A stretch of DNA of 64,000 bases from Candidatus Zixiibacteriota bacterium (GTDB lineage: Bacteria; Zixibacteria; MSB-5A5; WJJR01), in contig JBFMGX010000004.1 of NCBI GenBank assembly GCA_040752595.1, forward strand, positions 365,346 through 429,345. Reading direction: 5' to 3'. The notes under the pieces are model-generated. The model made no database searches. It saw only the letters and a program-made list of their open reading frames with translations, and had not been told where the DNA came from. A program made the position numbers and the translations under genes. Below, one piece after another: positions 7,691 through 50,621 of this stretch. Each line of letters begins with the position of its first letter. The first letter of the stretch is position 1.

Positions 7691-7780
7691 CAGCCTACCC
7701 GTTGAGAATCACGAACAGACAGCGGGCGGTGCACTCGCACCGCCCGCCCCTTGACAGACCAACCTCAAGCTGCGCGGACT

Positions 7781-7876
7781 CTACCGCAGTTTCTTTTTGT
7801 GACGGTCCTTGCGCAGGCGTTTCTTCCTCTTGTGGGTTTTGATCTTCTGGCGTTTCCGTTTCTTCCCGGATGGCAT
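7781..7876 (-). CDS. 31-aa hyper-basic small protein MPSGKKRKRQKIKTHKRKKRLRKDRHKKKLR, resembling ribosomal protein bS22
   Basis: ATG sits 44 nt downstream of the HU stop, preceded by GGGAGCG. Composition and spacing resemble mycobacterial and Bacteroidetes bS22 (..KKRRKRM.KKKHRKLLRRTR..). It is far below ORF-caller length cut-offs. Confidence 0.4.
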   Translation of the reverse strand: MPSGKKRKRQKIKTHKRKKRLRKDRHKKKLR

Positions 7877-7920
7877 CGAGCGCTCCCGTGGATGGGCGCC
7901 GCAGGGGCGCCATCATCCCC

Positions 7921-8205
7921 CTATAAAGGTTGCTTCACAATCAAATTCTTGAATTCATTCGACGGCTTGAAGACCGGCACCTTGCGGTCCGGGACCGGAA
8001 CCTCGTCGCCGGTGCGCGGATTGCGCGCCTTGCGGGCCTTGCGCATCTTCACCTTGAAGGTCCCAAACCCGCGGATCTCAATGTTCTTCCCGGTCTCCAA
8101 ACTGGCCTTCACCGCGTCGAGAAAAGCGTCCACCGTCACGGCCACGTCGGTGCGCGTCAGGCCGGTCTTCTCGGCGCAGATCTCCACCAAATCGGCCTTG
8201 GTCAT
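7921..8205 (-). CDS. hup: HU/IHF-family nucleoid DNA-binding protein
   Basis: IEIRGFGTFKV arm, RNPRTGDEV, KPS.EFK over 94 aa. Confidence 0.9.
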   Translation of the reverse strand: MTKADLVEICAEKTGLTRTDVAVTVDAFLDAVKASLETGKNIEIRGFGTFKVKMRKARKARNPRTGDEVPVPDRKVPVFKPSNEFKNLIVKQPL

Positions 8206-8263
8206 CCTGACCTCCTCATTGCATCGTCTATTTGTCTATATCTCAATCCCACACATTCCGGAC

Positions 8264-17310: not shown

Positions 17311-17913
17311 TCATCGTGGCTGATACAGCGATTCCGGGATGCCGTGCTGCCTGAGCACGCTGATTACCATCGACTGGATCTGAGTCGCCGTCGAATCAGC
17401 GCGTGCATGGAGCTCGGACAGGCGTACAAGCTCCCCACGCAGGACGTGTGCGGCGGATGAGGAATCGTCAGCTTGTCCGATCTCAAGCATGGCATCCTCG
17501 AGGGCACGCGAAACGCTGAGGTATCTGCTTCTGATAGAATCGATGGTCGCGTCAGCCACACGACCAATGGCCAGAGCGAGCTGTGAACTTCTGCCCAGAC
17601 CGTGGCCGCTGTATCGGCTGCGCGTCAGGTCAATGCTATCAGCCGCGCTCTGGCGGGCGAAGGCGAGATATCGGTCAAAGTCGTCAAGGTGTCTGCGTGC
17701 TCGGGTCCGGATCTCGACCTTGCCGATGCGTTCCAATTGAACTGCCACGTTGCCGACTTTGAAGACGGCGATGCACGCCGCAAATGCCGCGACCGCCGCA
17801 ATGGCATTCTGAATAATGAAGCGGGCGTCCCGGTACCATGCTCCCGCGCTTGTTTCCTTTGTGCGCGCCATGAGAATGTATGGCTCGGCGTGAGCCTCGC
17901 CCTCCCGAACCAT
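17311..17913 (-). CDS. Hypothetical membrane-anchored protein, likely co-transcribed downstream of lapB
   Basis: Start lies 4 nt after the lapB stop. One N-terminal TM helix (AIAAVAAFAACIAVF) then a helical/coiled region. No family recognised, and a GC-rich antisense artefact cannot be excluded. Confidence 0.35.
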   Translation of the reverse strand: MVREGEAHAEPYILMARTKETSAGAWYRDARFIIQNAIAAVAAFAACIAVFKVGNVAVQLERIGKVEIRTRARRHLDDFDRYLAFARQSAADSIDLTRSRYSGHGLGRSSQLALAIGRVADATIDSIRSRYLSVSRALEDAMLEIGQADDSSSAAHVLRGELVRLSELHARADSTATQIQSMVISVLRQHGIPESLYQPR

Positions 17914-19732: not shown

Positions 19733-19807
19733 GCCCCCGTGGTGTAAAGGATAACGCACCGGCCTCCGGAGCCGGTAATACAGGTTCGATTCCTGTCGGG
19801 GGTACCA
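19733..19807 (+). tRNA. tRNA-Arg (anticodon CCG), CCA encoded
   Basis: Hand-folded cloverleaf. 7-bp acceptor stem (G1-U72 wobble). D-stem GUGU/ACGC with GG in loop. Anticodon stem CCGGC/GCCGG with loop CUCCGGA. T-arm ACAGG-UUCGAUU-CCUGU. Discriminator A plus CCA. Confidence 0.85.
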
Positions 19808-19834: not shown

Positions 19835-21055
19835 TCACAGCCGCTGCTGATCCACCAGGGGTTTGATCGCGCCGATGAAACGCCGATTGAGCGCCCGGCG
19901 ATCGTAGTGCTCGGCGATAGCCAGTCTCCCCCTGCGACCCATCTGCTGCCGCTCTTCAGTATTCCGGACCAGTCTGGCGATTGCCTGCGCGATGGCTGAA
20001 ACATCGCCGGGTGGGGTCACAAGGCCACAACCGGAGCTCTCAACAATCTCGGCCGCTTCGCCGTCAACGGCGAGGATCACCGGCGTCCCCGACGCCATCG
20101 CCTCAAAGAGCTTTGAAGGAACTGCACCGCGGAAGAGCGGCAGGTTTTTCAGGCATACAAGCGTGCAGTCGAAAGCGCTCCAGACTGCGGGCATGTTTTC
20201 ATGCGGCTGCGTGGGGACACAGATCACGTTGTGGAGTCTGCGGCGCGCGATCTCGCTCAGAATCACCGTCCGAGCCGGGCCGTCGCCCACCAAGACATAG
20301 ACAACATCCGGCGTCAGTGCCGCCACCTGCGGAATGATCTCCAAGCCCTGCGAGAGTCCGAAGAGCCCGGCGTACCCCGCCAAGAATCGGTGCGACGCGA
20401 TTCCCCACCGACGCCGCCACGATTCGCTGTCCGGCTTCTTTTCAGGCACGGGTTCTGCCCCGTTTCCCCAATGAATGACCGGCACAGCAGGGACGCGACC
20501 GGCGATGTCGGCGACGATCGCCTGCGTTTGTCCCGATATCAGCGCCGACCGTCGATAGAGGAACTGCTCCATCGTCTTGAGGCAACGCATGATCGTGCCA
20601 TCGCGGAGTCCGCCCAGTGCGAGAATGCTGGCCGGCCACAGATCAGAGACATTCGTCACGAGCCGCGCCCCCTTGATCTTTGCCAACAGCCACGCGGTAG
20701 GGCCCAGAAACAAAGGTGGCGTCTCCCATATCACGACGTCGACGCGGGGTGCGCGGATCATACCAACCAGCAAAGCGGTGACTGCAAAGGAGAGAAACGA
20801 CATCATCCGCCACCATTTTCCCCGACCGTGGGTGAAAAGCCAAGCTCGGATCACCTGCACCCCCTCGTCGAGCTCGGTCTTCATGATGCGACCCTGATAT
20901 TCCGGGAGGATGCGACCTGCCGGATAGTGAGGCATGGCGGTCACGACGATGACGTCGATTCCCTCCTCCCGGCATGTGCGCACCAGCGCCCCCAACCGGT
21001 TCTGAGTGGCCCCGGTCTCGGGCGGGAAGAACTGTGTGACAAGCAAGAGTCGCAT
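19835..21055 (-). CDS. Glycosyltransferase family 4 (WcaI-like, GT-B fold)
   Basis: N-domain MRLLLVTQFFPPETGATQNR. C-domain EX7E region ...GLVTPPGDVSAIAQAI.... The longer listed ORF (to 21337) has no support upstream of M95. Confidence 0.8.
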   Translation of the reverse strand: MRLLLVTQFFPPETGATQNRLGALVRTCREEGIDVIVVTAMPHYPAGRILPEYQGRIMKTELDEGVQVIRAWLFTHGRGKWWRMMSFLSFAVTALLVGMIRAPRVDVVIWETPPLFLGPTAWLLAKIKGARLVTNVSDLWPASILALGGLRDGTIMRCLKTMEQFLYRRSALISGQTQAIVADIAGRVPAVPVIHWGNGAEPVPEKKPDSESWRRRWGIASHRFLAGYAGLFGLSQGLEIIPQVAALTPDVVYVLVGDGPARTVILSEIARRRLHNVICVPTQPHENMPAVWSAFDCTLVCLKNLPLFRGAVPSKLFEAMASGTPVILAVDGEAAEIVESSGCGLVTPPGDVSAIAQAIARLVRNTEERQQMGRRGRLAIAEHYDRRALNRRFIGAIKPLVDQQRL

Positions 21056-21208
21056 CTGTGCCCTTCTCGCTGGACGGGGTGAATATAGGCGACCGACACC
21101 GGCAGCGCAGGGATTCTCGTAAAGGGACTTGGCAAGTTTGAGGCGATCGATTTGCTTACAACCGATGGCGGCGCCTCGTTGCCCGCAGCACTTGAATGGG
21201 AGGTCCCA

Positions 21209-22723: not shown

Positions 22724-22871
22724 TGGGGGGCAGAAGAGCAGGGATCTTTCGTGTGCCCGCGATCTCTGATCGCGGCTTTGTGATATGTTTCGATTGTCGC
22801 GCTTCGCGCAACCGCGATCGGAGATCGCGGCCACGCAACGTGGTCATGCTCCACGTATGACGAGGTGCACC

Positions 22872-23405
22872 ATGAAGACCGTACATCCTGGACGCTGGCG
22901 GGCGAAACTGGAGAAGGATCAGCCGGCGAAGATCGTCCCCGTCCCGCCGAAGTGGCAACGGCAGTATGGGCGGGGGACGATGTTGATCTCCCGCCCCATC
23001 GATGTCGATTGGCTCATCCGCAAGGTGCGCAAGGGACGGCTGACGACGCCGACCCTGATCCGGGAACGTCTGGCGCGCGACTATGGCGCCGAAAACGCCT
23101 GCCCGCTCTGCACCGGCATCTTCATCCGCATCGTCGCCGAGGCCGCCGAAGAGGATCGTCGCGCCAGGAAGGGACGCATCACACCCTACTGGCGCGTGGT
23201 GCAGTCCGATGGAAGTCTCTATACGAAGTTCCCGGGAAGCGCGGCGGCGCAAGCCAGGCATCTGCGCACCGAGGGATTCGTCATCGCCGCGGCGAAGGGC
23301 CGGAAACCGCGCTTCGACTGCGCTTGCCGTCGCAGACCGATCGTCGTCAGGATCCCGCGATCGGTCCCCCCGTGTTGGCCCAGCCGCGTTTCACCACGGC
23401 GTTGA
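22872..23405 (+). CDS. MGMT-fold DNA-binding protein of the alkyltransferase-like (Cys-less) type with N-terminal extension
   Basis: Helix-turn-helix region then ITPYWRVVQSDGSL, which aligns to the Ogt PCHRV active-site loop with Cys replaced by Tyr-Trp. Canonical Ogt (PCHRV) is encoded separately at 60906-61424. Confidence 0.5.
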   Translation: MKTVHPGRWRAKLEKDQPAKIVPVPPKWQRQYGRGTMLISRPIDVDWLIRKVRKGRLTTPTLIRERLARDYGAENACPLCTGIFIRIVAEAAEEDRRARKGRITPYWRVVQSDGSLYTKFPGSAAAQARHLRTEGFVIAAAKGRKPRFDCACRRRPIVVRIPRSVPPCWPSRVSPRR

Positions 23406-24996
23406 CCATCGGCGTTCCCGGAGGAAGCTTGGTGGGATCCAGAAGATCGGTGTCGAACTGCCAAACGCGATTCGGGGGATTGTAGTAGCCGCCGGTGCCG
23501 CCCCACTTGGCGGTTGCCTGCTCCGAATACCACATCTGCACCATCGAGCCGCTCCAAGTGAAGTTATCGCCGCTCCAGTTCTCGAGGAACCGCGGGAAGT
23601 TCTCGACCCCGCCCGAGTAGTTCCCGCCCACGCTGGCGACATTGCCGGTGATGAACGACACGTTCACCGTCGTCGGGTTCGCATTGCGATAGGTCAACGT
23701 CTTGGTGCTGTTGCTGTCCTGCCAGTTGGTCGACAGGACCGTGTAAGCGTCGGAGAAAATGGCGGCCGGCTTCTTGCTTGTGGAGTTGTAGTTCCCTTTC
23801 GTGTAGACCGGGTTCTCCGACACCACCGTAAGCCCCGACTTGAGCGACGAACCGTTGATCAGCCGGGTGGCCTTGAGGTTGCCGCCCGAGTAGGTGTCCT
23901 TCGTATAGACGATTCCGTTGCTCGGCCAATAGGCGCTGGTGTTCAGCTTGGAGATGTCGATGTCGCGGGCGTTGACCGTCTTGGCGTTGCGCCCGTCGTA
24001 GAATGACGACGTCGAAAGCACGCCGCTGGAGGTTAGATCGGCGGTCACATTGACCCACGAACCGCCGCTCTTGAAGTAGGCCTGTCCGTCAAGGATCTTC
24101 AACGTGGCCTTGTTCTCATAGGAATCCGTGTTCCCGGCCGAGGCGTCTTCGATGATGGCATGGGGGTCGTTGCTGGCCTCCAGGGGCAGGTTGAGGGACG
24201 TCATGCCGTGGTCGACATCCTGCACTTGACCGCCCCAGCGGTCCAGCGCCTTCTGCATCCACTGGCTCTCATTGTGATCCAGCCAGGTGCCGTCGGGGTT
24301 CCGCATGTCACGGTCCACCCCGTCCTTGTCCTTGATGCGCACATACCCGGTGCCGGTCGCCATTCCCGAGGCGGGATCACGACCGTGGTAGATGGACCCG
24401 GCGGCGGTCAGAAACGAGTTGATGGTCAGACCGTTGTTGGAGCCGAGATAGGTGTCGCCGTTCGAATGGACGCGCCCGGACAGGGTCATCACCGGCCCCG
24501 GGTGCCACTCCAGCACCTTGTCATAGAAGATCGCGAACTGGAAGATCGGGATCAGCGCCCGCTCCATCCGGATGCGCACCGAGTTCTGCACGCCGGAGGC
24601 GTCGGAGCGCGCGTACCCCCAGAGGTCGTAGTCTTGCACGAGGCCATACAGCCCCCGAAACGCCCCGGTCGTGAGATTCCGGGTCGTGGGCGTGCCGACG
24701 GCCAGGGTGGCGTACTGGACATGATAGCGGTCGAGAACGAACGAATCGACCGGCAGCGGGTTGGGCGGCGCGTCGGTGGAGTCGATGGCGGCGTTGAACA
24801 GGGCGTAGGCATAGTCCGCCGCCGCCTCGGCGGCGTAGAGGGCATTGACGTCCCGCAATTGGTACCCGGCCACGTCCATGTCATCGGACGACTTGTTGAC
24901 CATCGAGACGCCGAGGATGCCGAACATCAGAAGCAGCGCCATGCAGGTCAGCATCACAAACCCGCGTTGGTTGCGGAGAACAAACAGATGTTTCAT
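23347..24996 (-). CDS. pilX: Type IV pilus minor pilin/tip-associated protein with PilX_N domain (549 aa)
   Basis: N-terminus NQRGFVMLTCMALLLMFGILGVSMVNKSS matches the PilX_N signature. Long Gly/Asn/Thr-rich C-region. Last gene of the pilV-pilW-pilX operon. Confidence 0.6.
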   Translation of the reverse strand: MKHLFVLRNQRGFVMLTCMALLLMFGILGVSMVNKSSDDMDVAGYQLRDVNALYAAEAAADYAYALFNAAIDSTDAPPNPLPVDSFVLDRYHVQYATLAVGTPTTRNLTTGAFRGLYGLVQDYDLWGYARSDASGVQNSVRIRMERALIPIFQFAIFYDKVLEWHPGPVMTLSGRVHSNGDTYLGSNNGLTINSFLTAAGSIYHGRDPASGMATGTGYVRIKDKDGVDRDMRNPDGTWLDHNESQWMQKALDRWGGQVQDVDHGMTSLNLPLEASNDPHAIIEDASAGNTDSYENKATLKILDGQAYFKSGGSWVNVTADLTSSGVLSTSSFYDGRNAKTVNARDIDISKLNTSAYWPSNGIVYTKDTYSGGNLKATRLINGSSLKSGLTVVSENPVYTKGNYNSTSKKPAAIFSDAYTVLSTNWQDSNSTKTLTYRNANPTTVNVSFITGNVASVGGNYSGGVENFPRFLENWSGDNFTWSGSMVQMWYSEQATAKWGGTGGYYNPPNRVWQFDTDLLDPTKLPPGTPMVNAVVKRGWANTGGPIAGS

Positions 24997-25043
24997 CGTT
25001 CCCTCACTATCGACATGCATCCGGTACGGACATGCGATGAACC

Positions 25044-25970
25044 TTACTCCTGATTGCGAACGCTGACGACAAAGCCGTATTGCCGCCGACGGTACGCCTG
25101 ATCCATGATCTGGTCGACCCGGTTCGTACGGGCCATGATGCGCACCAGGACATTGCGAACCAGTGTCGGGGTGACCGGCGTGGCGAGCGTGTCGCCATCC
25201 TGCATGATATAGTCGAACTGCAAGTCCTCGATGTTCTCGGCGTACGGCTCGGGCGCGCCGCCGACCGGATGGCGGACCAGCATCGGATGGAGCGTGTCGG
25301 CACGGTCCAGGTAGTACGACATCTGGAGGATACGCGAGACCCGTGACCCGCTCGGATAGGTGCGCGACAGGGCGGCGGTGTGGGTCAATGCGGGGGGGGC
25401 GCTCTCGATGGTGGACACGGTGAAAAACTCACCCACGCCATTGACGGCGTCGAACACGTAGACACGCATGCCGGGAGAAAAGCAACTCAGGTCCGCGCCG
25501 CTGCAGACCAGATTGTCCGACACGGATGCCATCGATGCCGAGGTGCTCGCTTCGCATCCGGTCGCATCGAGGTTCGTGACCGTGATCGTATCCGGGTTGG
25601 AGTCCACTCCCGCCAGCGGATCGAGAGTCGCCGGCAGACCGAACCCCGCCATCCGCAGATGCTCCGAAAGCACGCGCATCGCCGCCCGCCCCGACTGCTG
25701 CATCTCGTTGATCTCATCCTGCATGACCGACTGGGTATGCAAGGTCAGGTAGGCGTCCATCGCTGCGGCCACGGTGAACAGTCCGATCAGGACCGCCGCC
25801 AGCAGCTCCAGTATGGTCATGCCCGCCTGCGCCCCGGCCCAGCTCCGGCACCGGGAGTGAACCGATCTTGTCCAACGCTTCAGTATTGACATGCTGCCGC
25901 TCCCCGTCAGTTCCGGTAGAGGTAGGTGATTGCGCGCTGACGACGCAGCACGCCCGTTTCGCTGTTCCAA
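25044..25970 (-). CDS. pilW: Type IV pilus minor pilin PilW-like
   Basis: Prepilin leader ...AQAG|MTILELLAAVLIGLFTV (class III signal, Glu5). The start may be the internal Met at 25892. Confidence 0.6.
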   Translation of the reverse strand: MEQRNGRAASSARNHLPLPELTGSGSMSILKRWTRSVHSRCRSWAGAQAGMTILELLAAVLIGLFTVAAAMDAYLTLHTQSVMQDEINEMQQSGRAAMRVLSEHLRMAGFGLPATLDPLAGVDSNPDTITVTNLDATGCEASTSASMASVSDNLVCSGADLSCFSPGMRVYVFDAVNGVGEFFTVSTIESAPPALTHTAALSRTYPSGSRVSRILQMSYYLDRADTLHPMLVRHPVGGAPEPYAENIEDLQFDYIMQDGDTLATPVTPTLVRNVLVRIMARTNRVDQIMDQAYRRRQYGFVVSVRNQE

Positions 25971-31476: not shown

Positions 31477-32346
31477 CTACAGCATCTGCTTCAGAAGGCG
31501 CAGCACCATCCGGTTGAACCCCTCGGGTCCGGGGGCGCCGGCGAGACGGATCCCTCGGTGGGCGCGCAGGCCGGGATGGTACTTGCCGTCGGGGCGTTTG
31601 ACGGCGATGCCGATGTCGCAGGCCGCCATCATCGCCCAATCGTTGGGGGAATCGCCGAAGGCCAGTGTACGCGGCTTGATCTTCAGAGAGGTCGCATACC
31701 AGCGGATCAACTCGGCGACGGCATGTCCCTTGTCGGTCTTGCCGGTGAGGTGGTAGAAGCGGCCACCGGTGATCACGGTGAGCCCGTCGGCGGCCAGTTC
31801 TCTGAGATGATTCTGGGTTGTGCTCTCGGACAGGGCCGGGCGGAACAGGAACGGCTCTTCGTACTCGCGTTTCTTCGCCAGCGGCGCCAGGTGGATCGGT
31901 ATCTCGGCGTATTGGGCGATTACCTCCGGAGTCCAGTCGCCGAACCCCTCGCATTTCACCCCACTCTGCTCACGGTAGGCGATCAACCGCTTGCGCACGG
32001 ACGCATACGGTACGCCGAACTCACGCACCCACAACCCGTCACGCTCCCTGGCGCCTCTCGGCTTGATCGGTGCCGCCGCCTTGGGCCAGAAGATGGCGGC
32101 GCCGTTCTCCGCAATGAACGGTGTCTCCAGACTCAATGCCTTGTGCAAGGGGAGAATCTCCGCCCGCGTCTTCGATGAGACGATGACGAGAGGGACATTC
32201 AGACGTTTGAGTTCCCGCAAAGCGGCGGTCGCGACCGCATGCGAGTAGGTGTGAAAATCCAACAGCGTGCCGTCCAGGTCGGTGAAGACCACCAAACCCG
32301 GCTTGGTCGGCTTGGCCGCGCGCTTCTTTGTAGCTGCCGTGGGCAT
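31477..32346 (-). CDS. HAD-IIB hydrolase, mannosyl/glucosyl-3-phosphoglycerate phosphatase-like
   Basis: Motif I FTDLDGTLL. Motif III/IV ...GDSPNDWAMM.... Start at Met25 (ATG 32346); an alternative start is at 32418. Confidence 0.7.
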   Translation of the reverse strand: MPTAATKKRAAKPTKPGLVVFTDLDGTLLDFHTYSHAVATAALRELKRLNVPLVIVSSKTRAEILPLHKALSLETPFIAENGAAIFWPKAAAPIKPRGARERDGLWVREFGVPYASVRKRLIAYREQSGVKCEGFGDWTPEVIAQYAEIPIHLAPLAKKREYEEPFLFRPALSESTTQNHLRELAADGLTVITGGRFYHLTGKTDKGHAVAELIRWYATSLKIKPRTLAFGDSPNDWAMMAACDIGIAVKRPDGKYHPGLRAHRGIRLAGAPGPEGFNRMVLRLLKQML

Positions 32347-32529
32347 GGAATAGGGCTTTGACGTTTCTCCGCCAGAGTTCGAAACATGCAAAATACCGTC
32401 CGCCTCGGCATCCGGCAACGGAAAAACGTTCCTGGCGCGGCACCTTTGGCGCCCGGAGCGATACGGTCGTATGCAATCGGACTTGACAGATCAAGGCGGC
32501 ATCCCTATATGTGATTCGGCGTCCGGTGA

Positions 32530-32700
32530 TCTGCGGATCGACCGGGAAGGCGGTGAGAATCCGCCACAGCCCCGCTGCTGTAAGCGGCTACGACGGTGAC
32601 GCCGCGTGCGAAAGTCGCGGCTAACCACTGGGACGGTAGTCCCGGGAAGGTGTCACCCGAGGCCCGAAGCCGCAAAGTCAGAAGACCGGCACGGACGTCT
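32530..32700 (+). promoter_or_regulatory. Cobalamin (AdoCbl) riboswitch
   Basis: GGGAAGGCGGTGAGAATCCGCC...CCCGCTGCTGTAAGCGG ... CCACTGGGACGG...CCCGGGAAGGTG ... B12-box AAGTCAGAAGACCGGCA. These match the Rfam RF00174 core elements GGUG.GAAUCC / CCACUG / GGGAAGG / AGUCAGGAGACCUGCC. Confidence 0.7.
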
Positions 32701-32905
32701 GCCACAGATCTCGATTCGGCTGAAGCCGAATGAGTCCGTGGCCAGAGTTTCGATGCCTTCGCGGGAAGGATCGGGGCGGGACGTCGCATCGCGGCTGAGT
32801 CCCTGACTGTCGCCCGACCACCGCGTGGCCGGGCGATCTGCTTTGTCCGGTCCCGTTCCTTCCCCGCAGACATCGGTTCAGCACCGCTCCGAGGGAGAGC
32901 CGGCC

Positions 32906-35182
32906 ATGTCCAGTGTCTGCGAATACCTGCCGCGTTGGGGAGCGCGATCCGCCGCGGCGGACCGCCGAGCCGTCCCCGATCACTCGCCACAATCCCGGCT
33001 CAGCAGGAGCTTCGCCCTCCCTTTCAGTGACGGGATCGGGGGAAGGGTCGGTCGTCGCGCGTTCTTCCTGTTCGTCGCTTTCGTCGTTACTGCCCCTGCG
33101 ACAGCACGGGCCGAGTCGGAACGCGCCATCAGCGGCACTGTCTACGATCGTGCCTCCGGTTCTCCGCTTGAAGGTGCCGTCCTGACGGTGGATGGCACTG
33201 CCTGGGCGAGCATCACCGACGCCGGGGGTCGTTTCTCGATGCGTTCCATCCCCCCGGGAGAGTGGTCGGTCATGGTCACGCGCGTCGGGTTCCAGCCACG
33301 GCACCTGGCGTCGGTTGCAGTACGCGAAGGATTCGAGCAGACGCTGCACATCAGTTTGATTCCCGCACCGGTGGTGCTGCCGGGGCAGCAGGCGACCGGT
33401 CAGGCGCCCGATCGCTTCGCGGTGCGGCGCATCGAATTGTCATCGACACCACAGTCACCATCTCAGACGATTGAGCAGGCGCTGGCACGCGTACCGGGGG
33501 TTCGTGTCTATGGTTCGTCGGAGACACCCGGCGGGGTTCGTGTCTCTGTCGGAGGCGAGCCCGCCGAACGAGTGGCAGTGCTGTTGGATGGTGTGCCGTT
33601 GTCCGGTGGGGGAGATGGCTCAGTGGATCTGGCGGCGATCCCCCCTGCGGCGATCCGCGCCATTGAAGTCCATCCCGGGTCTCAGTCGGCGATTGCGGGC
33701 AATGCGGCGGTTGGCGGTGTCGTCAACCTGATCACGTCCACAGATGACCCTGCGGCGGCGCCTCCGACCGAGCTGCATGCCTTTGGTGGTGCATTCGATC
33801 ATTACGAAGCCGGAACGTCCCAACGGTTGCTCTTGGGAGGCGGCGAGGCGCGCTTCACCCTCGATGGGTTCCGGCATGGCCCCCGTTTCTCGTATCCCTC
33901 CGGCGACACCAACGCGATCCGTACCGGCGTCGCCAGTCACGGCCTGCGTGTGTTCACGCGCTTCGACAATCTGCCGCGCCACATCGAGGCGCTGGCATTC
34001 GTCTATCGGTCGACCAACGGCGTTCCCGGTCCTCTGGAGCAGAGGACGCCGGATGCCACCAATGACAATGACCGGTTTCGTTGCCAGGTGCGCTGGCAGG
34101 CGGAAATGCCGGAGGCAATGCAGGCGGCCGCCGCGATTTGGTACGAAAACGGCCGCGAACACTATCGTTCGCCGCAGCTCTACAAGGCCGATGCCGAGTC
34201 GAACGAGGAAACATGGGGCGGGAAGGCCGATCTCGTCCTTCATGGCCGGTCGCTGTCCGGCGGGCTCACGGTGGAAATGCGCAGCCGGCGTCTGGAAGGG
34301 ATCGATCATCTGCGTCCGGCGCAGTCGTTCGGAGTCCGACAGCGCATGGAGCATGCGGTCCGGGGACAGGTGGCGCACTCGGGAAGTCTACCTATAGGAT
34401 CAGGGACTGCTCGTGTCACTTGGGCGTGGGACATCGAGACCGGCGGGCAGAGCATCCTCTCGCCGCGCGCCGATCTGTCTTGGTCGGGCCCCGGCGCGAT
34501 CGTGTGGCACGGTGGTTGGGGACGATCATTCCGCCGCCCCGAGTTGACGTCGTTGTTCTGGAAGGCCGATGCCTACGCCGTCGGCAACCCCGACCTGCGT
34601 CCCGAGCGCGCTTCGGAATGGGACATCGCCGTTGGCTGGTTTCCGCGGCGCGTCGTGGCCGAGACACGGTACTTCGAACGCGACGTGACCGACATCATCG
34701 TCTGGGATCGCGACTTCGCCGGGCGCTACACACCCCGGAATCTGCGCGCGGCGTCTGTGGTCGGCCGGGAGGATCACATCGCGGTTGTGCCCTGCGAGCG
34801 CCTGGTCTCTCTGACGCTCGACTATACCCACGTGTTCACCGGCGCCAATGACGCCAGCGGCGAACCGAACACCGACGGGCGCACGCTGGTGTTCACGCCG
34901 CGACACATACATCAGTTTCGCCTCTCCGGGGAATGGCGACGATTCGGCGCCACCGTGCTCGGGCGGTGGGTGTCGCTGCGCTACACACGACGCGCCAACA
35001 CGAAGACGATCGCACCCTACCGTGCATTCGATGCGTCCGTGACCGTCGTCTGCCGTCGCCGGGCGCCGCGGTTGACAGTCTCGCTCAGCGGCGAGAACCT
35101 GACCAACGAGCATATCGAACTGATCGAACGCTATCCCTCGCCGGGACGGGCGCTGTCGGGAGCGATCACAGTCGGCCTATGA
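32906..35182 (+). CDS. TonB-dependent outer-membrane receptor with N-terminal carboxypeptidase-regulatory-like domain; BtuB-like by context
   Basis: Signal peptide RRAFFLFVAFVVTAPATARA. CarbopepD_reg-like ISGTVYDRASGSPLEGAVLTVDG. Plug and 22-strand barrel region. RBS GGGAGAG precedes ATG 32906. Sits immediately downstream of the B12 riboswitch. Confidence 0.8.
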   Translation: MSSVCEYLPRWGARSAAADRRAVPDHSPQSRLSRSFALPFSDGIGGRVGRRAFFLFVAFVVTAPATARAESERAISGTVYDRASGSPLEGAVLTVDGTAWASITDAGGRFSMRSIPPGEWSVMVTRVGFQPRHLASVAVREGFEQTLHISLIPAPVVLPGQQATGQAPDRFAVRRIELSSTPQSPSQTIEQALARVPGVRVYGSSETPGGVRVSVGGEPAERVAVLLDGVPLSGGGDGSVDLAAIPPAAIRAIEVHPGSQSAIAGNAAVGGVVNLITSTDDPAAAPPTELHAFGGAFDHYEAGTSQRLLLGGGEARFTLDGFRHGPRFSYPSGDTNAIRTGVASHGLRVFTRFDNLPRHIEALAFVYRSTNGVPGPLEQRTPDATNDNDRFRCQVRWQAEMPEAMQAAAAIWYENGREHYRSPQLYKADAESNEETWGGKADLVLHGRSLSGGLTVEMRSRRLEGIDHLRPAQSFGVRQRMEHAVRGQVAHSGSLPIGSGTARVTWAWDIETGGQSILSPRADLSWSGPGAIVWHGGWGRSFRRPELTSLFWKADAYAVGNPDLRPERASEWDIAVGWFPRRVVAETRYFERDVTDIIVWDRDFAGRYTPRNLRAASVVGREDHIAVVPCERLVSLTLDYTHVFTGANDASGEPNTDGRTLVFTPRHIHQFRLSGEWRRFGATVLGRWVSLRYTRRANTKTIAPYRAFDASVTVVCRRRAPRLTVSLSGENLTNEHIELIERYPSPGRALSGAITVGL

Positions 35183-35315
35183 CGCAACAACTAAACAAGG
35201 ATCGGGAGGGCGACGCTCCTGCGGAGCCGAGTCACTTCGCATGAAAAGACGGCTCGGCGGTCCGCCGCGGCGGATCGCCCTCCCGGAACGAATGTGTGAT
35301 AGGAAGGGGAAGGGG

Positions 35316-36551
35316 ATGCAGATGACTCGGTTCCAACTCGTATGCCACGCAACGTCCATTCTGCTGCTGGCGATGGTGATTCCCGTGGGCGCAGCCGCTG
35401 CCGCAGTCGTCGACACCGACCGGCTCATCGTGATCAACGGTCTGGCGGAAACACTGACTCTGGTCGACCGTGCCGCCGGGACCGTCGTCAACGATGTGAA
35501 GCCGCTCGGATTGGCACCCAACCGTATCCGTTATGGCGGCGGCCGGCTCCTGCTGGTGAATTCGACCTCCGATGATCTGTGGGTCATCGATCCAGAGACG
35601 CTCGCCACGCTGCGCGACGTAAACTTCATCGACGGCGAGAATCCCTGGGATGTCGCCTATGTCGATGACACACTGTGCGCCGTCTCGCTGTTGATCGCCG
35701 ATAAGATCGCCTTCGTCAACCAAAGCACGGGGCAGATTCTCCGCCGTCGCGACGTCGGCAAGAGCCCGCAGGGGCTGTTGGCCGTCGGGCCACAGCTCTG
35801 GGTGGCCAACACGGGGTTCGATTTCGGCACGTATCTGTATGATCCCGGGACCGTGTCGGTGCTGAACATCGCCGATGGTGCAACCATGGCGACGATTCCG
35901 GTCGGGACCAATCCCCAGGCGCTGGCGGCGTCGCCCGATGGTACGATCCATGTCTTGTGCACGGGGAACTACTTCGACCGTTTCGGCATCGTGTACTTCC
36001 TCGACCCGGCATCAATGTCGGTCGTCGATTCACTCCTGCTGGGGGGATCGCCGGGCGATCTGGCGATTGGCTCCGACGCCATTGCCTATGTCGCCGCCGG
36101 TGGCTGGGTCGATTCCGGCGAAGTGTATCGCTATCAGGCCATCTCACACCTACTGTTGAATGGCTCCGCCAATCCGTGGCACACGGCGCGCGGTGCCATG
36201 ACAGTCTTGCCGCGCCTGGAAGGGGGAGTGCATGCCATCTGTTTCTCCGGCGACTCACTGGTGGAGCACGATCTGCATGGCGGCATCGCGCGTCGCTGGC
36301 AGGTCGGCGACGGCCCTGTTCATGCCGCCTATGTCACCAACCGCCTGCCCGGGGATTTCAATGAGGATGGCGTGCTGTCTGTGCAAGACGTCGTCGGCCT
36401 GATCGACTTTGTCTTCCGCAGCAGCTCATTTCCGCAGCGATTGGGCGCCGCGGATGTCAATGCCGACTGCCAGTACTCGATACAGGATGTCGTGCTGTTG
36501 ATCAATGTCGTCTTCCGCGGCGGCTCCGGTCTCTATTGGGGGTGTGACTGA
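35316..36551 (+). CDS. Secreted YVTN-type beta-propeller protein with C-terminal dockerin-like domain
   Basis: Signal peptide, then repeated ~40-aa YncE/YVTN blades. C-terminus DFNEDGVLSVQDVVGLIDFVF...ADVNADCQYSIQDVVLLINVVFRGGSG is a type-I dockerin duplication. Confidence 0.65.
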   Translation: MQMTRFQLVCHATSILLLAMVIPVGAAAAAVVDTDRLIVINGLAETLTLVDRAAGTVVNDVKPLGLAPNRIRYGGGRLLLVNSTSDDLWVIDPETLATLRDVNFIDGENPWDVAYVDDTLCAVSLLIADKIAFVNQSTGQILRRRDVGKSPQGLLAVGPQLWVANTGFDFGTYLYDPGTVSVLNIADGATMATIPVGTNPQALAASPDGTIHVLCTGNYFDRFGIVYFLDPASMSVVDSLLLGGSPGDLAIGSDAIAYVAAGGWVDSGEVYRYQAISHLLLNGSANPWHTARGAMTVLPRLEGGVHAICFSGDSLVEHDLHGGIARRWQVGDGPVHAAYVTNRLPGDFNEDGVLSVQDVVGLIDFVFRSSSFPQRLGAADVNADCQYSIQDVVLLINVVFRGGSGLYWGCD

Positions 36552-36970
36552 TGACGTTGGGCAACTTTCATCAGCGTCGGGCACTGGTGTGTTGGGTCGC
36601 CGTGGGCGCGGTGCTCCTGTCGGCCGGGTGCGGTCAGAATGGCAGCCGACCGCGTCCAGGGCATGGCGCGCAGGATTCTCGGGCATTGATCATCGCCTAC
36701 AGCCCGGACTCAGCCGATACGTTCGCCTGTCCCGGCCGCGATTCCATCGCGGTTCTCGATCTCCTGATGCAGATGGCCCGCTCCGACAGCACGATTGTGC
36801 GCACCAAGACATACCCATTCGGTGTCTTGGTTGACCAGATCGGGTACCGTCGCAACGGCGACGGTGGTTTCTGGCTATACAGCGTCAACGGTGCCATGAT
36901 CCCGGAGTCGGCGGACAAACATCGGATCGGTGCGGGCGACACCGTGCGGTTCTTATTCGATGAGCGATGA
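36551..36970 (+). CDS. DUF4430-family lipoprotein (transcobalamin-like B12-binding fold family)
   Basis: Lipobox LLSAGC. Motif GGFWLYSVNGAMIPESADKHRIGAGDTVRFLF fits the DUF4430 signature (W.Y.VNG...GA..Y.L..GD.I.W.Y). Start overlaps the upstream stop (ATGA). Confidence 0.65.
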   Translation: MTLGNFHQRRALVCWVAVGAVLLSAGCGQNGSRPRPGHGAQDSRALIIAYSPDSADTFACPGRDSIAVLDLLMQMARSDSTIVRTKTYPFGVLVDQIGYRRNGDGGFWLYSVNGAMIPESADKHRIGAGDTVRFLFDER

Positions 36971-37022: not shown

Positions 37023-37550
37023 ATGTCTTCGGCCGGCACCACGTCACTTTGGACCGTCCCCAATCTGCTCTCACTGTCCCGGGTGATCCTGCTGCCGGTG
37101 TGGTGGTGGGTCATGGACTCCCCCGACCCATCACGACGCTGGTGGGGCGCGGCGCTCATCGCCTACGGTATTCTCTCCGATGTTCTCGATGGCTATCTGG
37201 CGCGCCGATGGGGGCAGGTGTCGCTCTGGGGGAAGGTGATCGATCCGGTCGGCGACAAACTCGCGGGATTGGTGATCGGTTTGTTCTGTGTGATGCATCG
37301 TGGTTTCCCACTCGCCGCGTTTCTTCTGGGAACCGGCCGCGACTTGGTTCTGGTCGTCGGCGGGTGGGTGCGCTATCGCCGCACAGGAGTCATGCCGATC
37401 TCGGCAAATCTCGGCCGCTACGCCGCCTTTCTGTGGGGAGTTCTGCTGTTGCTCTATGCCTTCGATACGTCGGCCATAGCTCATGTCATTGTCTGGCCCA
37501 CGGTGGCGCTGTATCTCATCGCTGGGATCGACTATCTCCGTCGTCGATGA
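37023..37550 (+). CDS. CDP-alcohol phosphatidyltransferase family protein (PgsA-like)
   Basis: DVLDGYLARRWGQVSLWGKVIDPVGDKL matches the D-G-x2-A-R...G-x3-D-x3-D signature. 4-5 TM helices. Confidence 0.7.
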   Translation: MSSAGTTSLWTVPNLLSLSRVILLPVWWWVMDSPDPSRRWWGAALIAYGILSDVLDGYLARRWGQVSLWGKVIDPVGDKLAGLVIGLFCVMHRGFPLAAFLLGTGRDLVLVVGGWVRYRRTGVMPISANLGRYAAFLWGVLLLLYAFDTSAIAHVIVWPTVALYLIAGIDYLRRR

Positions 37551-37558
37551 GAAATGCT

Positions 37559-37755
37559 GTAGGGGTTGATCTCAAATCGACCCGTTTGTAGGGGCGAGGC
37601 ACTGCCTCGCCCTCTTGCCCTCGCAGGGGGTGGGCGACCCAACGGGTCGCCCCTACAAGGTAACATCGATGGCAAATCGTAGGGTGGGTGCTCCGCACCC
37701 ACCGTGTCCCGAGACCCCTGCGGTGGGTACAAAGCACCCACCCTACATCACATTC
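37559..37755. repeat. REP cluster of five hairpin units (e.g. GTAGGGGCGAGGCACTGCCTCGCCC; GGGCGACCCAACGGGTCGCCCCTAC; GTAGGGTGGGTGCTCCGCACCCACC)
   Basis: Same GTAGGGG...CCCCTAC bracket as the other clusters. Hairpins verified by hand. Confidence 0.55.
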
Positions 37756-38731
37756 TCCTTGTCCGTCCGCCGGGGTGAATCCCCGTGTCGGAGATGATCG
37801 CCGTGATCAGCGCATTCGGCGTGACATCGAAGGCGGGGGAGAAGACCTTGGCACCTGGGGGTGCGATACGTGTGTCGCCGATGTCGGTGACCTCATCGGC
37901 GGAGCGTTCTTCGATTGGAATGTCGCGCCCCGTGGCGATGTCGTCGTCAAAGGTCGTGCGCGGCGCGGCAACATGGAAGGGGACGCCATGATGCGCCGCC
38001 AGCACCGCAACGTTGTATGTGCCGATCTTGTTGGCGACATCGCCATTGCGCGCGATGCGGTCGGCGCCGACGATAACCGCATCGATCCGTGAAGCGGAAA
38101 AGAGCGACGCGGCGGTGTTGTCGGTGATCAACGTCGCGTCGATCCCCTCTTGCATCAACTCCCACATTGTCAGACGCGCCCCTTGCAGAATCGGACGCGT
38201 CTCATCGGCATAGACCCGCAGCCGCTTCCCCTGATCGCGCGCCGTGTAGATCACGCCGAGCGCGGTCCCGATGCCCGTTGTCGCCAACGCCCCGGCGTTG
38301 CAGTGTGTCAAGACGGTCATGCCATCGGCCAACAGCGTGGCGCCGTTCTCGCCGATGCGTTTGCACATCGCGATGTCTTCCTCGTGGATGGCGATTGCTT
38401 CCGTTTCCAGAACCTCACGCAATCGCGTCGGATTCGCGCCGCAGTTTTGTTCCACGACAGACCTCATGCGCGCAACCGCCCAGCCGAGGTTCACTGCGGT
38501 CGGACGCGCTGATGTCAACAGTCGTGCGGCGGAGTCACGGTCCGTGGCGAGGACCATTCCATAGGCGGCGGCGACACCGATGGCCGGTGCGCCGCGCACG
38601 GTCAGATTGCGGATCGCCCCGGCAACATCCTCCGCTGTGCGGCAGACGACCGTGTCAACGCGCCCCGGCAGCCGCCGCTGGTCGAGGAGGTGCAGGGCGC
38701 CATCTGCCCAAGCCAATGTCCGAAAACGCAT
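37748..38731 (-). CDS. mtnA: S-methyl-5-thioribose-1-phosphate isomerase (eIF-2B alpha/beta/delta-like)
   Basis: Full-length match to MtnA/e2B2 family: GAPAIGVAAAYG, catalytic Cys/Asp region ...LTHCNAGALAT..., C-terminal FSPAFDVTP. Confidence 0.8.
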   Translation of the reverse strand: MRFRTLAWADGALHLLDQRRLPGRVDTVVCRTAEDVAGAIRNLTVRGAPAIGVAAAYGMVLATDRDSAARLLTSARPTAVNLGWAVARMRSVVEQNCGANPTRLREVLETEAIAIHEEDIAMCKRIGENGATLLADGMTVLTHCNAGALATTGIGTALGVIYTARDQGKRLRVYADETRPILQGARLTMWELMQEGIDATLITDNTAASLFSASRIDAVIVGADRIARNGDVANKIGTYNVAVLAAHHGVPFHVAAPRTTFDDDIATGRDIPIEERSADEVTDIGDTRIAPPGAKVFSPAFDVTPNALITAIISDTGIHPGGRTRRM

Positions 38732-43835: not shown

Positions 43836-44213
43836 TCAGCGGCCCTTGCCCAACAGACCGGTCACGAGCTGGTTTCTCAGGCGGGAGCGTTTGACGCCTT
43901 TGGCCAGTCCTTTCGGCAAACGCGCTCCGACTGTGTCCAGGAATGACTCGACTTCCTTCTCGATGGCGTGCTTGGCGAGGTCGGGGTGGCTGCGAAAGAT
44001 CACGGTGTGCAGGGCGTGCCGGATCACGCTGGCCACGGAGGTGTTCTCCCGGCGGGCCATCTTGCGCAGGATGTTCAGTTCCTCAGGATTGAGGATGAGG
44101 GAAAAGGGCTGCTTCGGTCCCGGGGTGCCGCGACCGCGCCGGACGACGCGCCTTGGTGCGCGCCGGACCGGCGACGGGCGTGCGGCGGCGGTTCTCCTTG
44201 CTCTTGGTGACAT
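43836..44213 (-). CDS. Putative ribbon-helix-helix (CopG-like) DNA-binding protein with basic N-tail
   Basis: C-terminal FSLILNPEELNILRKMARRENTSVASVIRHAL has an RHH-like beta-alpha-alpha pattern. Start chosen at the internal ATG 44213 with RBS AAGGA. A hairpin CCGACGGG..CCCGTCGG lies 3' of the stop. Confidence 0.4.
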   Translation of the reverse strand: MSPRARRTAAARPSPVRRAPRRVVRRGRGTPGPKQPFSLILNPEELNILRKMARRENTSVASVIRHALHTVIFRSHPDLAKHAIEKEVESFLDTVGARLPKGLAKGVKRSRLRNQLVTGLLGKGR

Positions 44214-44709
44214 CACACGTCCTTGGTTGGGTGTTGGGGACATAGTGGACCTGTTTCCACGCATGGGCGCTATTACGGGTGCGCCGGATCGGATGTCAAT
44301 AGCAAATTGAATGGCGTCGTCAGCATGACCGGGGCCCGGTCTGTGGTCATTGAACCGATCTCCCGGCCGGTCGCGCGGGGGCACCAGTCCGGGCCACCCG
44401 CTCACACCTCGCTATACGCCGCCGGGGCGTCGTTGGTTCCCCGCGCGGTTCATTAGCAGGATGCTGAAGAAGGACCATCCATGTCATTCTGAGCCCCGCC
44501 GCTCTTGGGCGGGGCTTGCCCGCCAAAGGCGGGCGAGAGTCTGCGGTTGGTTTCATGGGGCAAAACAGCAGGATGACAATGATGGGACCGGTCCACGTTT
44601 TCTGTGTTTTTCAGCAACCTGTTGGATAGTGAACTGCGATACTCAAGATTCGAGGTTGGTGGCGCCCATCGTCCCGACCGTTCCGCCAGAGTGCCGGGCT
44701 GGACCACCC

Positions 44710-50017: not shown

Positions 50018-50563
50018 TTACCGGGGGGACGGTCTGCTACTGTCGCGTCTCCCGGGATCGAATTGCGGCGTGATGGCGCGCACATCGGGCGTGACCACCT
50101 GGAGCGTGTTGTGCGGGGCGATGAAGGTCGTGTCCAGGACGAGCGGGCGCGAGGTCGGCGTGCGTGACGTGAAGAACAGCCGGGCAATCGGACCGCTACC
50201 GGGCTCCAACGGCGGTAGGCCGCTTCCGAGGTCGGAGATCAGCCCGATCAGGATATTCCGCTCCGCCGAGTCGGGATAGAACGTCTTCAGCGCGAAGTAC
50301 TCGGTCCGCAACCCGTAGTAGTTGGCGGAATCGATCCCGAACGGTGAGTTGCGGCCCCAGCGGAACGGGAGAGTCATGGCCGCCAGATGCTGGGTGTTGT
50401 CCAACGAGACAAGCACTTCCCAGTGCAGCGAATCGACCCGTTCGGATTGCAGCGTGATCCGCGTGACAGTGGGTGTCGCCGCCGGCGTCGCGGCCACCGC
50501 GGCCCCGAGTGGCGCGGTGGCCAAGAGCATGGCCGTTAGCGTCGCCCGAAGCTGCGTGTTCAT
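50018..50563 (-). CDS. Secreted hypothetical protein
   Basis: Signal peptide MNTQLRATLTAMLLATAPLGAAVAA. Start taken at Met29 to avoid overlap with the upstream gene. Confidence 0.45.
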   Translation of the reverse strand: MNTQLRATLTAMLLATAPLGAAVAATPAATPTVTRITLQSERVDSLHWEVLVSLDNTQHLAAMTLPFRWGRNSPFGIDSANYYGLRTEYFALKTFYPDSAERNILIGLISDLGSGLPPLEPGSGPIARLFFTSRTPTSRPLVLDTTFIAPHNTLQVVTPDVRAITPQFDPGRRDSSRPSPR

Positions 50564-50621
50564 GATCGTCTCACCGTTCATTGCCAACCGTGATACACGG
50601 ATCGGTTCCCGGCGACTCAGT

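Follow-up and report, generated by a model that had tools for sequence, protein, structure and literature searches.

The closest described counterparts of the locus reported here are the BtuB1-BtuG1 (PDB 8BLW), BtuB2G2 and BtuB3G3 systems of Bacteroides thetaiotaomicron, which likewise combine a cobalamin riboswitch, a BtuB-type receptor and an acidic seven-bladed propeller. In 2018, a BlastP survey covering 313 genomes of human gut bacteria reported BtuG as exclusive to the Bacteroidetes (PMC6143338). The 'pedal-bin' mechanism of BtuB and BtuG has been discussed in terms of adaptation to life in the crowded gut. Escherichia coli BtuB is also a TonB-dependent vitamin B12 receptor with plug and barrel domains, and is also under the control of a cobalamin riboswitch.

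Here we describe a locus in a 64-kb stretch of DNA (the window, that is, the whole stretch analysed) from a member of the Zixibacteria, in which a cobalamin riboswitch is followed on the same strand by three genes encoding a TonB-dependent receptor, a dockerin-tailed propeller and a DUF4430 lipoprotein. The locus is probably an operon for corrinoid (vitamin B12) scavenging of the BtuB-BtuG kind, with its two core proteins homologous to those of Bacteroides. Its features, 5' to 3', are:

32483 to 32511, forward strand: candidate sigma-70-like promoter read from the sequence (TTGACA, 17-nt spacer, TATATG).
32507 to 32709, forward strand: cobalamin riboswitch aptamer (RF00174; 90.8 bits, E 3.5e-21).
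32710 to 32905, forward strand: leader and putative expression platform, with a hairpin at 32712-32731 and a Shine-Dalgarno-like element.
32906 to 35182, forward strand: BtuB-type TonB-dependent receptor, as judged from its profile (Pfam CarboxypepD_reg at the N-terminus, Plug and barrel).
35316 to 36347, forward strand: BtuG-like seven-bladed YVTN beta-propeller (TIGR02276, AlphaFold2 model).
36348 to 36548, forward strand: C-terminal dockerin-like module with two F-hand repeats (Dockerin_1, PF00404).
36551 to 36970, forward strand: DUF4430 lipoprotein, transcobalamin beta-domain-like (PF14478, 30.1 bits against a cut-off of 23.8).

A preliminary description of this DNA had proposed that the leader is an adenosylcobalamin riboswitch, that it precedes a TonB-dependent receptor, a secreted YVTN propeller of the seven-blade type ending in a dockerin duplication and a lipoprotein with the transcobalamin-like DUF4430 fold, and that the operon is without btuFCD. 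All of these assignments were borne out by the searches reported below. The covariance model match to RF00174, far above the gathering score of 31.5 bits, spans model positions 1-189 and hence the full aptamer including the B12 box; the two motifs noted initially lie at 32675-32691 (AAGTCAGAAGACCGGCA) and 32552-32562 (GGTGAGAATCC). The promoter candidate lies immediately 5' of the riboswitch and was missed by a consensus scan because the final T is absent from its second hexamer. We infer only that it may be a promoter, the consensus being sigma-70-like and possibly not that of the host. Downstream of the aptamer, a GGGAGAG Shine-Dalgarno-like element is found about 8 nt 5' of ATG 32906, and the region 32690-32925 is predicted to fold with -122.5 kcal/mol (z -5.1 against shuffled sequences). 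A sequence scan found no terminator-like site between the aptamer and the receptor start codon, and the final helix of the predicted leader fold encloses both the Shine-Dalgarno element and the AUG; the riboswitch may therefore act by translational control.

The receptor is taken to start at ATG 32906, the sole in-frame ATG before the signal peptide, with GTG 32825 as an alternative. Its Pfam domains CarboxypepD_reg, Plug and TonB_dep_Rec_b-barrel each exceed their own gathering scores. The NCBIfam models TonB-B12 and BtuB are its top partial matches, at scores far below the BtuB equivalog cut-offs (78.7 bits against 599.7 for TIGR01779, and 73 against 836 for NF007926), so that by equivalog score it would be a distant BtuB member at best. 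When the single sequence was compared with the PDB, E. coli BtuB was the best match (E 1e-17). The family profile matched B. thetaiotaomicron BtuB1 (3.2e-66), E. coli BtuB (1.1e-65, full length), BtuB2 (5.4e-65) and BtuB3 (2.8e-59), as well as the colicin I receptor Cir, which at 2.8e-62 is nearly equal to BtuB; beyond BtuB and its relative Cir, the next full-length receptor followed at 1e-37 or weaker. Judged by its profile, the receptor family is BtuB-type.

The propeller is encoded within an open reading frame spanning 35241-36551; the public record, where it has the locus tag AB1792_01915 on a contig of 513,807 bp, probably places its start at ATG 35316, which gives a protein of 409 residues (P0001). 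It matches the YVTN repeat model TIGR02276 at 40.8 bits (cut-off 27.85), and its AlphaFold2 model (mean pLDDT 93.9) consists of 28 strands arranged as seven blades of four. The signal peptide is of the cleavable type I kind, with neither a lipobox nor a conserved Cys in the window protein or its clade. Residues 31-410, dockerin tail included, carry a net charge of about -20, compared with -18 for BtuG2 (PMC10404256).

In a Foldseek search with the propeller model, ranks 2-17 were occupied by BtuG1, BtuG2, BtuG3 or the BtuG homologue 3dsm (E 3e-18 to 6e-16), the next unrelated propeller appearing after these BtuG-type chains at E 2e-14. The propeller family profile matched BtuG1 (E 1.3e-17), BtuG3 (5e-10) and BtuG2 (2e-8), and the alignment to BtuG1 forms one stretch of 160-225 residues. 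One lipoprotein-type relative, L041, matches BtuG1 even as a single sequence (E 8e-11, residues 84-324), and the two are alike at the N-terminus, where each has a lipobox and an acidic motif (CDD... in BtuG1). In every propeller search, the S-layer YVTN protein 1l0q, of archaeal origin, equals or exceeds BtuG in score, and BtuG-specific homology therefore rests on context and ranking. This protein, from Methanosarcina mazei, is a surface-layer protein with PKD domains and no tie to B12 or to a TonB-dependent receptor, and its profile match, unlike the single stretch of BtuG1, breaks into three separate repeat-wise stretches. Taken together, the profile, the fold ranking and the context suggest that the propeller is a distant BtuG homologue, though 1l0q scores as high. 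In BtuG2 the corrinoid is contacted by Glu55, Gln93, Asn107, Ser131, Arg135, Trp149, Trp194, Gln219 and Trp272. Four contact positions of BtuG1 could be mapped by HMMER alignment, each falling on a residue that the propeller family conserves: polar residues are kept at N108 (residue 139) and Q151 (E180), while W110 and T215 correspond to R141 and R244. By analogy, the propeller may bind corrinoids in its central cavity and act as a lid on the receptor.

The ATG of the DUF4430 gene overlaps the propeller stop codon (TGATG), an arrangement by which, on sequence, the gene is translationally coupled to the propeller. The protein has a lipobox, LLSAG-C27, with the Cys27 codon at 36629-36631. Pfam DUF4430 is the C-terminal domain of transcobalamin-family proteins (PMC4350170). 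The core of the AlphaFold2 model (residues 44-139) has pLDDT values mostly above 90, and below an E of 1e-3 Foldseek gave 19 matches, every one of them transcobalamin, intrinsic factor, haptocorrin or the Ruminococcus gnavus DUF4430 structure 3u7z; against the isolated domains, target-normalised TM-scores were 0.66-0.74 at 10-15% identity. The DUF4430 profile retrieved nothing meaningful from the PDB by sequence, and the link to transcobalamin comes from the fold search alone. As modelled, the protein has the transcobalamin beta-domain fold, which suggests that it may bind a corrinoid. BtuJ is a DUF4465 protein (PMC13616437), and the Pfam scan found no DUF4465 (PF14717) match in any of the three proteins encoded here. 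Nor was any likeness to BtuH seen: the DUF4430 profile matches no solved structure, and below 1e-3 its model matches only the cobalamin carriers and 3u7z. The DUF4430 protein is the sole part that is non-homologous to the Bacteroides accessory binders.

At the C-terminus of the propeller, two F-hand repeats (DFNEDGVLSVQD and DVNADCQYSIQD) are followed by a terminal YWGC. Both loops match D-x-N-x-D-x6-D. The Dockerin_1 model gives 22.3 bits for the full-length protein, slightly short of its gathering score of 22.9, and 26.2 bits, above that score, for the 71-residue tail by itself; the family profile matches solved type I dockerins (E 4e-6 and weaker). Repeat positions 10-11 co-vary between the repeats when orthologues are compared, and C384, W407, G408 and C409 are invariant within the clade, where the Cys pair is conserved. 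Across the propeller family we observed three nearly exclusive modes of attachment, namely a lipobox without a tail, a type IX secretion tail and a dockerin tail. In an independent sample, a lipobox with acidic residues was present in 31 of 39 tail-less relatives and in a single one of 44 with a type IX or dockerin tail, which argues that the tails stand in for the lipid anchor in surface display. The dockerin-type propeller would be displayed at the cell surface, attached through its dockerin to a partner there; it has no lipid anchor, and for this type no means of crossing the outer membrane was evident. The preliminary description had taken the dockerin to imply docking onto a cohesin-bearing surface scaffold, which would be one candidate partner; no cohesin was found among the Pfam-scanned open reading frames in about 12.6-56.3 kb of the 64-kb window. 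An extra domain of 190 residues in relatives of the Calditrichota/KSB1 type had no match in Pfam or the PDB.

To place the locus in its genomic context, open reading frames of the window were chosen by GC3 and scanned with Pfam over about 12.6-56.3 kb; no btuFCD genes were among them. A pgsA-like gene downstream keeps its place in 12 of 12 loci. It was left out of the operon, as a weak promoter-like site precedes it and the models it resembles most are those of pgsA and cardiolipin synthase, at scores under their cut-offs. Related loci were sought with an alignment of the 17 closest propeller sequences; the relatives considered here number 71, and at E of 1e-30 or below the family comprises 1,125 cluster representatives. 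A receptor homologue adjoins the propeller in 55 of the 62 loci in which this could be assessed, the pair being found in Zixibacteria, Calditrichota, KSB1, Marinimicrobia, Cloacimonadota, WOR-3 and others. Of the 55 loci holding enough upstream sequence, 39 have a cobalamin riboswitch upstream in the same orientation, under at least eight phylum-level labels, and the other 16 have none. With this frequency, the riboswitch-receptor-propeller arrangement is far beyond chance. Each of the 12 clade loci has the DUF4430 gene immediately behind the propeller gene. In other clades btuFCD was not found downstream of the propeller either; the genes there are unrelated and encode L31, DUF1385, RF-1 and TldD.

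The preliminary description had also proposed a check of related genomes for conservation of the gene order. The order is conserved for riboswitch, receptor and propeller, which are widespread together; the trio including DUF4430 is confined to the one clade of 12 loci. It had further likened the locus to the Bacteroides BtuB/BtuG system with its accessory binders, and the B12-regulated trio of receptor, propeller and DUF4430 protein does mirror that system in function. Its view that this is done with apparently non-homologous parts was not supported, given the profile match of the propeller to BtuG1 and the BtuB-type receptor family. That such a trio had yet to be characterised outside the Bacteroidota agrees with our literature search, which found no paper on a receptor/propeller/DUF4430 system there.

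We propose that, when intracellular adenosylcobalamin is low, the riboswitch would leave the leader open and the three genes would be expressed. The BtuB-type receptor would then be placed in the outer membrane, while the strongly acidic propeller, once exported, would be fixed to the cell surface through the dockerin-like module at its C-terminus and not by a lipid anchor. There it could take corrinoids into its central cavity and hand them on, probably while covering the receptor barrel like a lid. The DUF4430 lipoprotein would be synthesised in concert with the propeller, given the overlap between its start and the stop codon of the propeller gene, and may serve as a second corrinoid-binding or hand-over component at the surface or at the periplasmic face. 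Transport across the inner membrane would depend on genes elsewhere in the genome.

Other readings of the locus have to be weighed against this one. An unrelated YVTN surface protein might have been recruited independently beside a B12 receptor, so that the likeness to BtuG would be functional only. This seems unlikely, since the match of the family profile to BtuG1 is a single long stretch and not a repeat-by-repeat one, L041 and BtuG1 are similar as single sequences and have both the lipobox and the acidic motif at their N-termini, the receptor encoded beside it is closest to B. thetaiotaomicron BtuB1, itself the partner of BtuG1, and the gene order is identical. The propeller might also be periplasmic, a soluble corrinoid acceptor in the role of BtuF with the DUF4430 lipoprotein as its membrane-tethered partner. 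Such a location would fit a protein in which, as here, neither a lipobox nor a type IX tail nor any recognisable signal for outer-membrane export is seen, and it would fit the absence of btuF from the operon and from the scanned part of the window (about 12.6-56.3 kb). Dockerin modules, however, are typical of extracellular proteins. In addition, the homologues point to surface display, having either a type IX secretion tail or a lipobox followed by acidic residues that resemble an export signal, and BtuG has been shown by experiment to be surface-exposed (PMC6143338). We thus regard a periplasmic propeller as improbable.

The cargo could also be something other than a complete corrinoid, such as a cobalt complex or another tetrapyrrole, with the riboswitch merely coupling the operon to B12 status. 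Indeed, cobalamin riboswitches also govern cobalt transport and B12-independent enzymes, the receptor falls under the BtuB equivalog cut-offs, and Cir is nearly level with BtuB against its profile. Against this, four different BtuB proteins are the top full-length matches of the receptor, and cobalamin binders are the best structural relatives of both accessory proteins, making a non-corrinoid cargo very improbable. Corrinoid capture by a BtuB-type receptor with a surface-held BtuG-like propeller is the reading we prefer.

Within this corrinoid capture reading, we have also considered a 'split lipoprotein', in which the dockerin tail would bind a membrane-anchored partner in a calcium-dependent manner and the transcobalamin beta-like domain would cover the face of the corrinoid left free by BtuG, that of the lower ligand. 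Candidates for the partner are the coupled DUF4430 lipoprotein, the receptor and a cohesin-like protein encoded elsewhere. A role for DUF4430 as the obligatory dockerin receptor is weakened by the dockerin-type loci L012-L019, which have no DUF4430 gene within 7 kb. We hold this arrangement to be unlikely. If true, it would recreate the two-domain sandwich of transcobalamin from two separate proteins, and would be the first case of dockerin-type docking for micronutrient capture at a diderm outer membrane.

The locus is probably a variant BtuB-BtuG corrinoid capture system outside the Bacteroidetes, the phylum to which the 2018 gut survey had restricted BtuG. The lineages of the locus and its 71 relatives, mostly uncultured, also include Eisenbacteria and Armatimonadota, which suggests that the receptor-plus-propeller design is widespread across little-known phyla. 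If the pairing works as we infer, the design would be older and more general than an adaptation to the gut. The family also amounts to a natural experiment on surface attachment, one kind of propeller being found lipid-anchored, with a type IX secretion tail or with a dockerin tail, and in the locus a stand-alone bacterial domain of the transcobalamin-beta-like kind (DUF4430) is for the first time tied by genomic context to B12 uptake in a diderm. High-affinity corrinoid binders are already in use as reagents, for instance in BtuG pull-downs in soil (PMC11287211), and these propellers supply candidates for new high-affinity corrinoid binders.

Compared with known systems, the window dockerin resembles the type I dockerins of cellulosomes in that each of its two calcium-binding F-hand loops spans 12 residues and leads into a helix. 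Cellulosomal dockerins sit on glycoside hydrolases, whereas the one described here sits on a nutrient-capture propeller in a diderm, and its clade has its own conserved Cys pair and YWGC C-terminus. The DUF4430 protein has a fold in common with the beta-domain of transcobalamin, intrinsic factor and haptocorrin and with R. gnavus RUMGNA_00854 (PDB 3U7Z), but unlike transcobalamin it is a stand-alone domain of about 95 residues with a lipid anchor and no alpha-domain. Two things set the receptor apart from E. coli BtuB, namely the added CarboxypepD_reg domain at its N-terminus and a propeller partner of its own. The operon differs from the Bacteroides system in containing no homologues of BtuH, BtuJ or BtuK and no btuFCD, and its host belongs to the Zixibacteria and not, as for BtuG, to the Bacteroidetes. 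Among solved structures, the Bacteroides BtuB and BtuG proteins are nonetheless the closest relatives, alone or jointly with others, of the window receptor and propeller, at 14-17% identity, and tail-less relatives in other phyla have the lipobox and acidic motif in common with BtuG. BtuG is lipid-anchored, whereas the window propeller carries a dockerin-like tail instead and some of its relatives a type IX secretion tail.

We confirmed that the trio is headed by a cobalamin riboswitch, as the preliminary description had proposed from motifs that are indeed present in the sequence, and that the TonB-dependent receptor, the YVTN propeller with its dockerin-like end and the DUF4430 lipoprotein follow as described:

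31477-32418, minus strand: mannosyl-3-phosphoglycerate phosphatase family gene (209.5 bits)
32507-32709, plus strand: cobalamin riboswitch (Rfam RF00174, whole model; 90.8 bits against a gathering score of 31.5; E 3.5e-21)
ending at 35182, plus strand: 2.3-kb receptor ORF (Pfam CarboxypepD_reg, Plug and TonB-dependent barrel)
35241/35316-36551, plus strand: YVTN propeller, 409-436 aa (YVTN repeat match above cut-off; C-terminal dockerin)
36551-36970, plus strand: DUF4430 lipoprotein, 139 aa (lipobox LLSAG-C; DUF4430 above gathering score)
37023-37550, plus strand: CDP-alcohol phosphatidyltransferase, 52 nt 3' of the DUF4430 gene
37748-38731, minus strand: mtnA (methionine salvage, S-methyl-5-thioribose-1-phosphate isomerase; 434 bits)

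The propeller stop and DUF4430 start overlap (TGATG), and both proteins are identical to NCBI protein records. Control by the riboswitch leader is likely translational, because the RNA that separates the aptamer from the start codon is predicted to fold strongly, with the ribosome-binding site inside the structure, and no terminator-like site was found in that interval.

The trio had also been described as mirroring the Bacteroides BtuB/BtuG system with apparently non-homologous parts; for the receptor and the propeller, our searches argue against the lack of homology. Searched as a single sequence against solved structures, the window receptor gave Escherichia coli BtuB (E 1e-17) and, for its barrel, Bacteroides thetaiotaomicron BtuB2 as its best relatives. 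A profile built from twelve receptors adjoining homologous propellers matched, over full length, B. thetaiotaomicron BtuB1 (E 3.2e-66), E. coli BtuB (E 1.1e-65), B. thetaiotaomicron BtuB2 (E 5.4e-65), the colicin I receptor Cir (E 2.8e-62) and B. thetaiotaomicron BtuB3 (E 2.8e-59), the next full-length receptor following at E 1e-37. The window receptor falls below the NCBI BtuB equivalog cut-offs and, judged by sequence, is a distant member of the BtuB type. The AlphaFold2 model of the propeller (38-sequence alignment; pLDDT 93.9) has 28 strands in the seven blades previously suggested, followed by a two-helix tail. Against the PDB, Foldseek ranked the archaeal YVTN S-layer protein 1l0q first. 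Ranks 2-17 went without exception to B. thetaiotaomicron BtuG1/2/3 or to 3dsm, a BtuG homologue, at E-values of 3e-18 to 6e-16. Their target-normalised TM-scores were 0.72-0.80, apart from chain 8blw_B (BtuG1, 626 residues) with 0.45. The next unrelated propeller came at E 2e-14. The propeller family profile matched BtuG1 in one long stretch (E 1.3e-17), BtuG3 at E 5e-10 and BtuG2 at E 2e-8. A lipoprotein-type relative from Ignavibacteriales matched BtuG1 even as a single sequence (E 8e-11, residues 84-324) and shares with it a lipobox followed by acidic residues. At four mapped BtuG1 contact positions the family residues are conserved, two being chemically similar to those of BtuG1 and two different. 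The window propeller is probably a distant BtuG homologue.

This family is large: of 1.84 billion cluster representatives scanned in full with HMMER, 1,125 matched at E <=1e-30. Scanning one genome per species yielded 71 loci labelled in the records as Zixibacteria, Ignavibacteria, Calditrichota, KSB1, WOR-3, Cloacimonadota, Neomarinimicrobiota, Armatimonadota, Eisenbacteria or unclassified MAGs. The propeller adjoins a homologue of the window receptor in 55 of the 62 loci whose sequence extends far enough for a verdict. Of the 55 loci assessable for a cobalamin riboswitch, 39 have one upstream in the same orientation (Rfam on twelve loci, a covariance model from those matches on all loci, then Rfam on the negatives); riboswitch, receptor and propeller are the broadly conserved unit. 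The 16 loci without a riboswitch belong for the most part to Cloacimonadota, to WOR-3 or to more divergent propellers; no Rfam cobalamin riboswitch was found within 7 kb of the pairs in WOR-3 (L016, L056) or Cloacimonadota (L058, L060, L062, L064, L069), where regulation, or substrate, may differ. In WOR-3, an Rrf2-family regulator gene lies 3' of the propeller. Two loci have the order riboswitch, propeller, receptor, second propeller (L048:6698-12990 and L057:6627-12949), so that two BtuG-like proteins, differently anchored, may serve a single receptor. Their first propellers are tailed, in L057 by a type IX/FlgD_ig domain and in L048 by an untyped 109 aa; the second propeller of L057 has a clear lipobox (LALTGC), and that of L048 a candidate Cys motif (ALALRC). 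In the Cloacimonadota locus L068 (1-2334), receptor-like and propeller-like matches share one open frame with a masked run (X) in it; the apparent fusion probably arose in assembly or masking.

Propellers of this family show three modes of attachment, used interchangeably: a type I signal with a dockerin-like tail of ~70 aa (19 loci, Zixibacteria by label in about half), a type I signal with a type IX secretion C-terminal domain (Por_Secre_tail/FlgD_ig), or a tail-less form that has a lipobox at the N-terminus with acidic residues behind it (CDESS, CESDSEE, CDDNPAD and others). Among cluster representatives sampled independently, a lipobox occurred in 31 of 39 tail-less proteins but in only 1 of the 44 that end in a dockerin or type IX domain. 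That lipobox and tail almost exclude each other is our main argument that the dockerin-like tail would serve surface retention. The Dockerin match scored 22.3 bits in the whole propeller and 26.2 bits for the tail alone (gathering score 22.9). Repeats 1 and 2 keep their symmetry at positions 10-11 even as they change from one orthologue to the next (VQ/IQ, AL/AL, VF/VF, PS/PS), as would be expected of a module selected to bind a partner; no cohesin was found among the Pfam-scanned window ORFs (~12.6-56.3 kb). Within the window's clade, two features of the tail (36351-36548 in the window) never vary: a Cys in calcium-binding loop 2 (DVNADC) and a W-G-C at the C-terminus. Together they suggest a disulfide stapling the C-terminus to the second repeat. 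In a more distant clade, the last residues of the dockerin tails are PCR or PCEI.

Some type IX-tailed relatives (Calditrichota, KSB1 and MAGs labelled 'Cytophagia') carry a ~190-aa domain between propeller and tail (L026:7900-8560, in the tail of propeller ORF 6917-8821; also L021, L027, L031, L033, L036, L037, L039, L040, L042-L045, L049, L050, L059 and L063). It is highly conserved (73% mean column identity; motifs DPWAD, GPPDPDP, DFTVFEN, GFAGVTPT, SGGDSFDLAD and NGDFDLDAVVAVNS), and Pfam and PDB sequence searches gave no match. By analogy with the BtuH part of the BtuG-BtuH fusion in B. thetaiotaomicron BtuG1, it may represent a second module for ligand binding.

DUF4430 is the C-terminal domain of transcobalamin-family proteins (PMC4350170), and the transcobalamin-like fold anticipated for the third protein was borne out: in its AlphaFold2 model (core residues 44-139, pLDDT mostly >90), all 19 Foldseek matches at E <1e-3 were beta-domains of transcobalamin, intrinsic factor or haptocorrin, or the Ruminococcus gnavus DUF4430 structure, generic beta-grasp folds appearing from E 0.06 on. 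Almost all of the 27 orthologues found have a lipobox. The gene lies 3' of the propeller in 12/12 loci of the window's clade and, even at E <10, in no locus outside it; the protein is a clade-specific addition. The CDP-alcohol phosphatidyltransferase gene (best NCBIfam match pgsA, 71.7 bits, below the cut-off of 109.1), with a weak promoter-like site ahead of it, holds the same place in all 12, and both flanking genes recur in 6-7 clade loci. Elsewhere in the window lie a tRNA gene and seven ORFs with coding-like GC3 and no Pfam match at E <=1e-4, among them two neighbouring minus-strand proteins of 557 and 308 aa:

19733-19804, plus strand: tRNA gene (RF00005, 62.1 bits)
20201-21082 and 22785-23405, plus strand: Pfam-less ORFs
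17311-17913, 23347-25020, 25044-25970, 43836-44405 and 50018-50647, minus strand: Pfam-less ORFs

BtuG has been called exclusive to Bacteroidetes after BlastP on 313 gut genomes (PMC6143338), and outside Bacteroidota a review of 2026 names BtuH and BtuJ but does not name BtuG (PMC13616437). In line with the earlier impression of novelty, we found no paper tying BtuG to the phyla of the present loci or dockerins to Zixibacteria, an absence of evidence only, given incomplete literature coverage.

In summary, homology to BtuB and the conserved context are solid, kinship with BtuG is probable, and the most likely mechanism is that B12 represses a BtuB-BtuG-like pair for capture and import, which the transcobalamin-beta-like protein would help. 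The locus appears to be a variant of the BtuB-BtuG system, with putative corrinoid binding, localisation and dockerin partner. The window propeller resembles BtuG2 in its acidic charge (-20 over residues 31-410, dockerin tail included, vs -18; PMC10404256); it would differ from BtuG in being held by a dockerin-like tail in place of a lipid anchor, and its DUF4430 companion shares no homology with BtuJ (DUF4465) or BtuH of the Bacteroides system.
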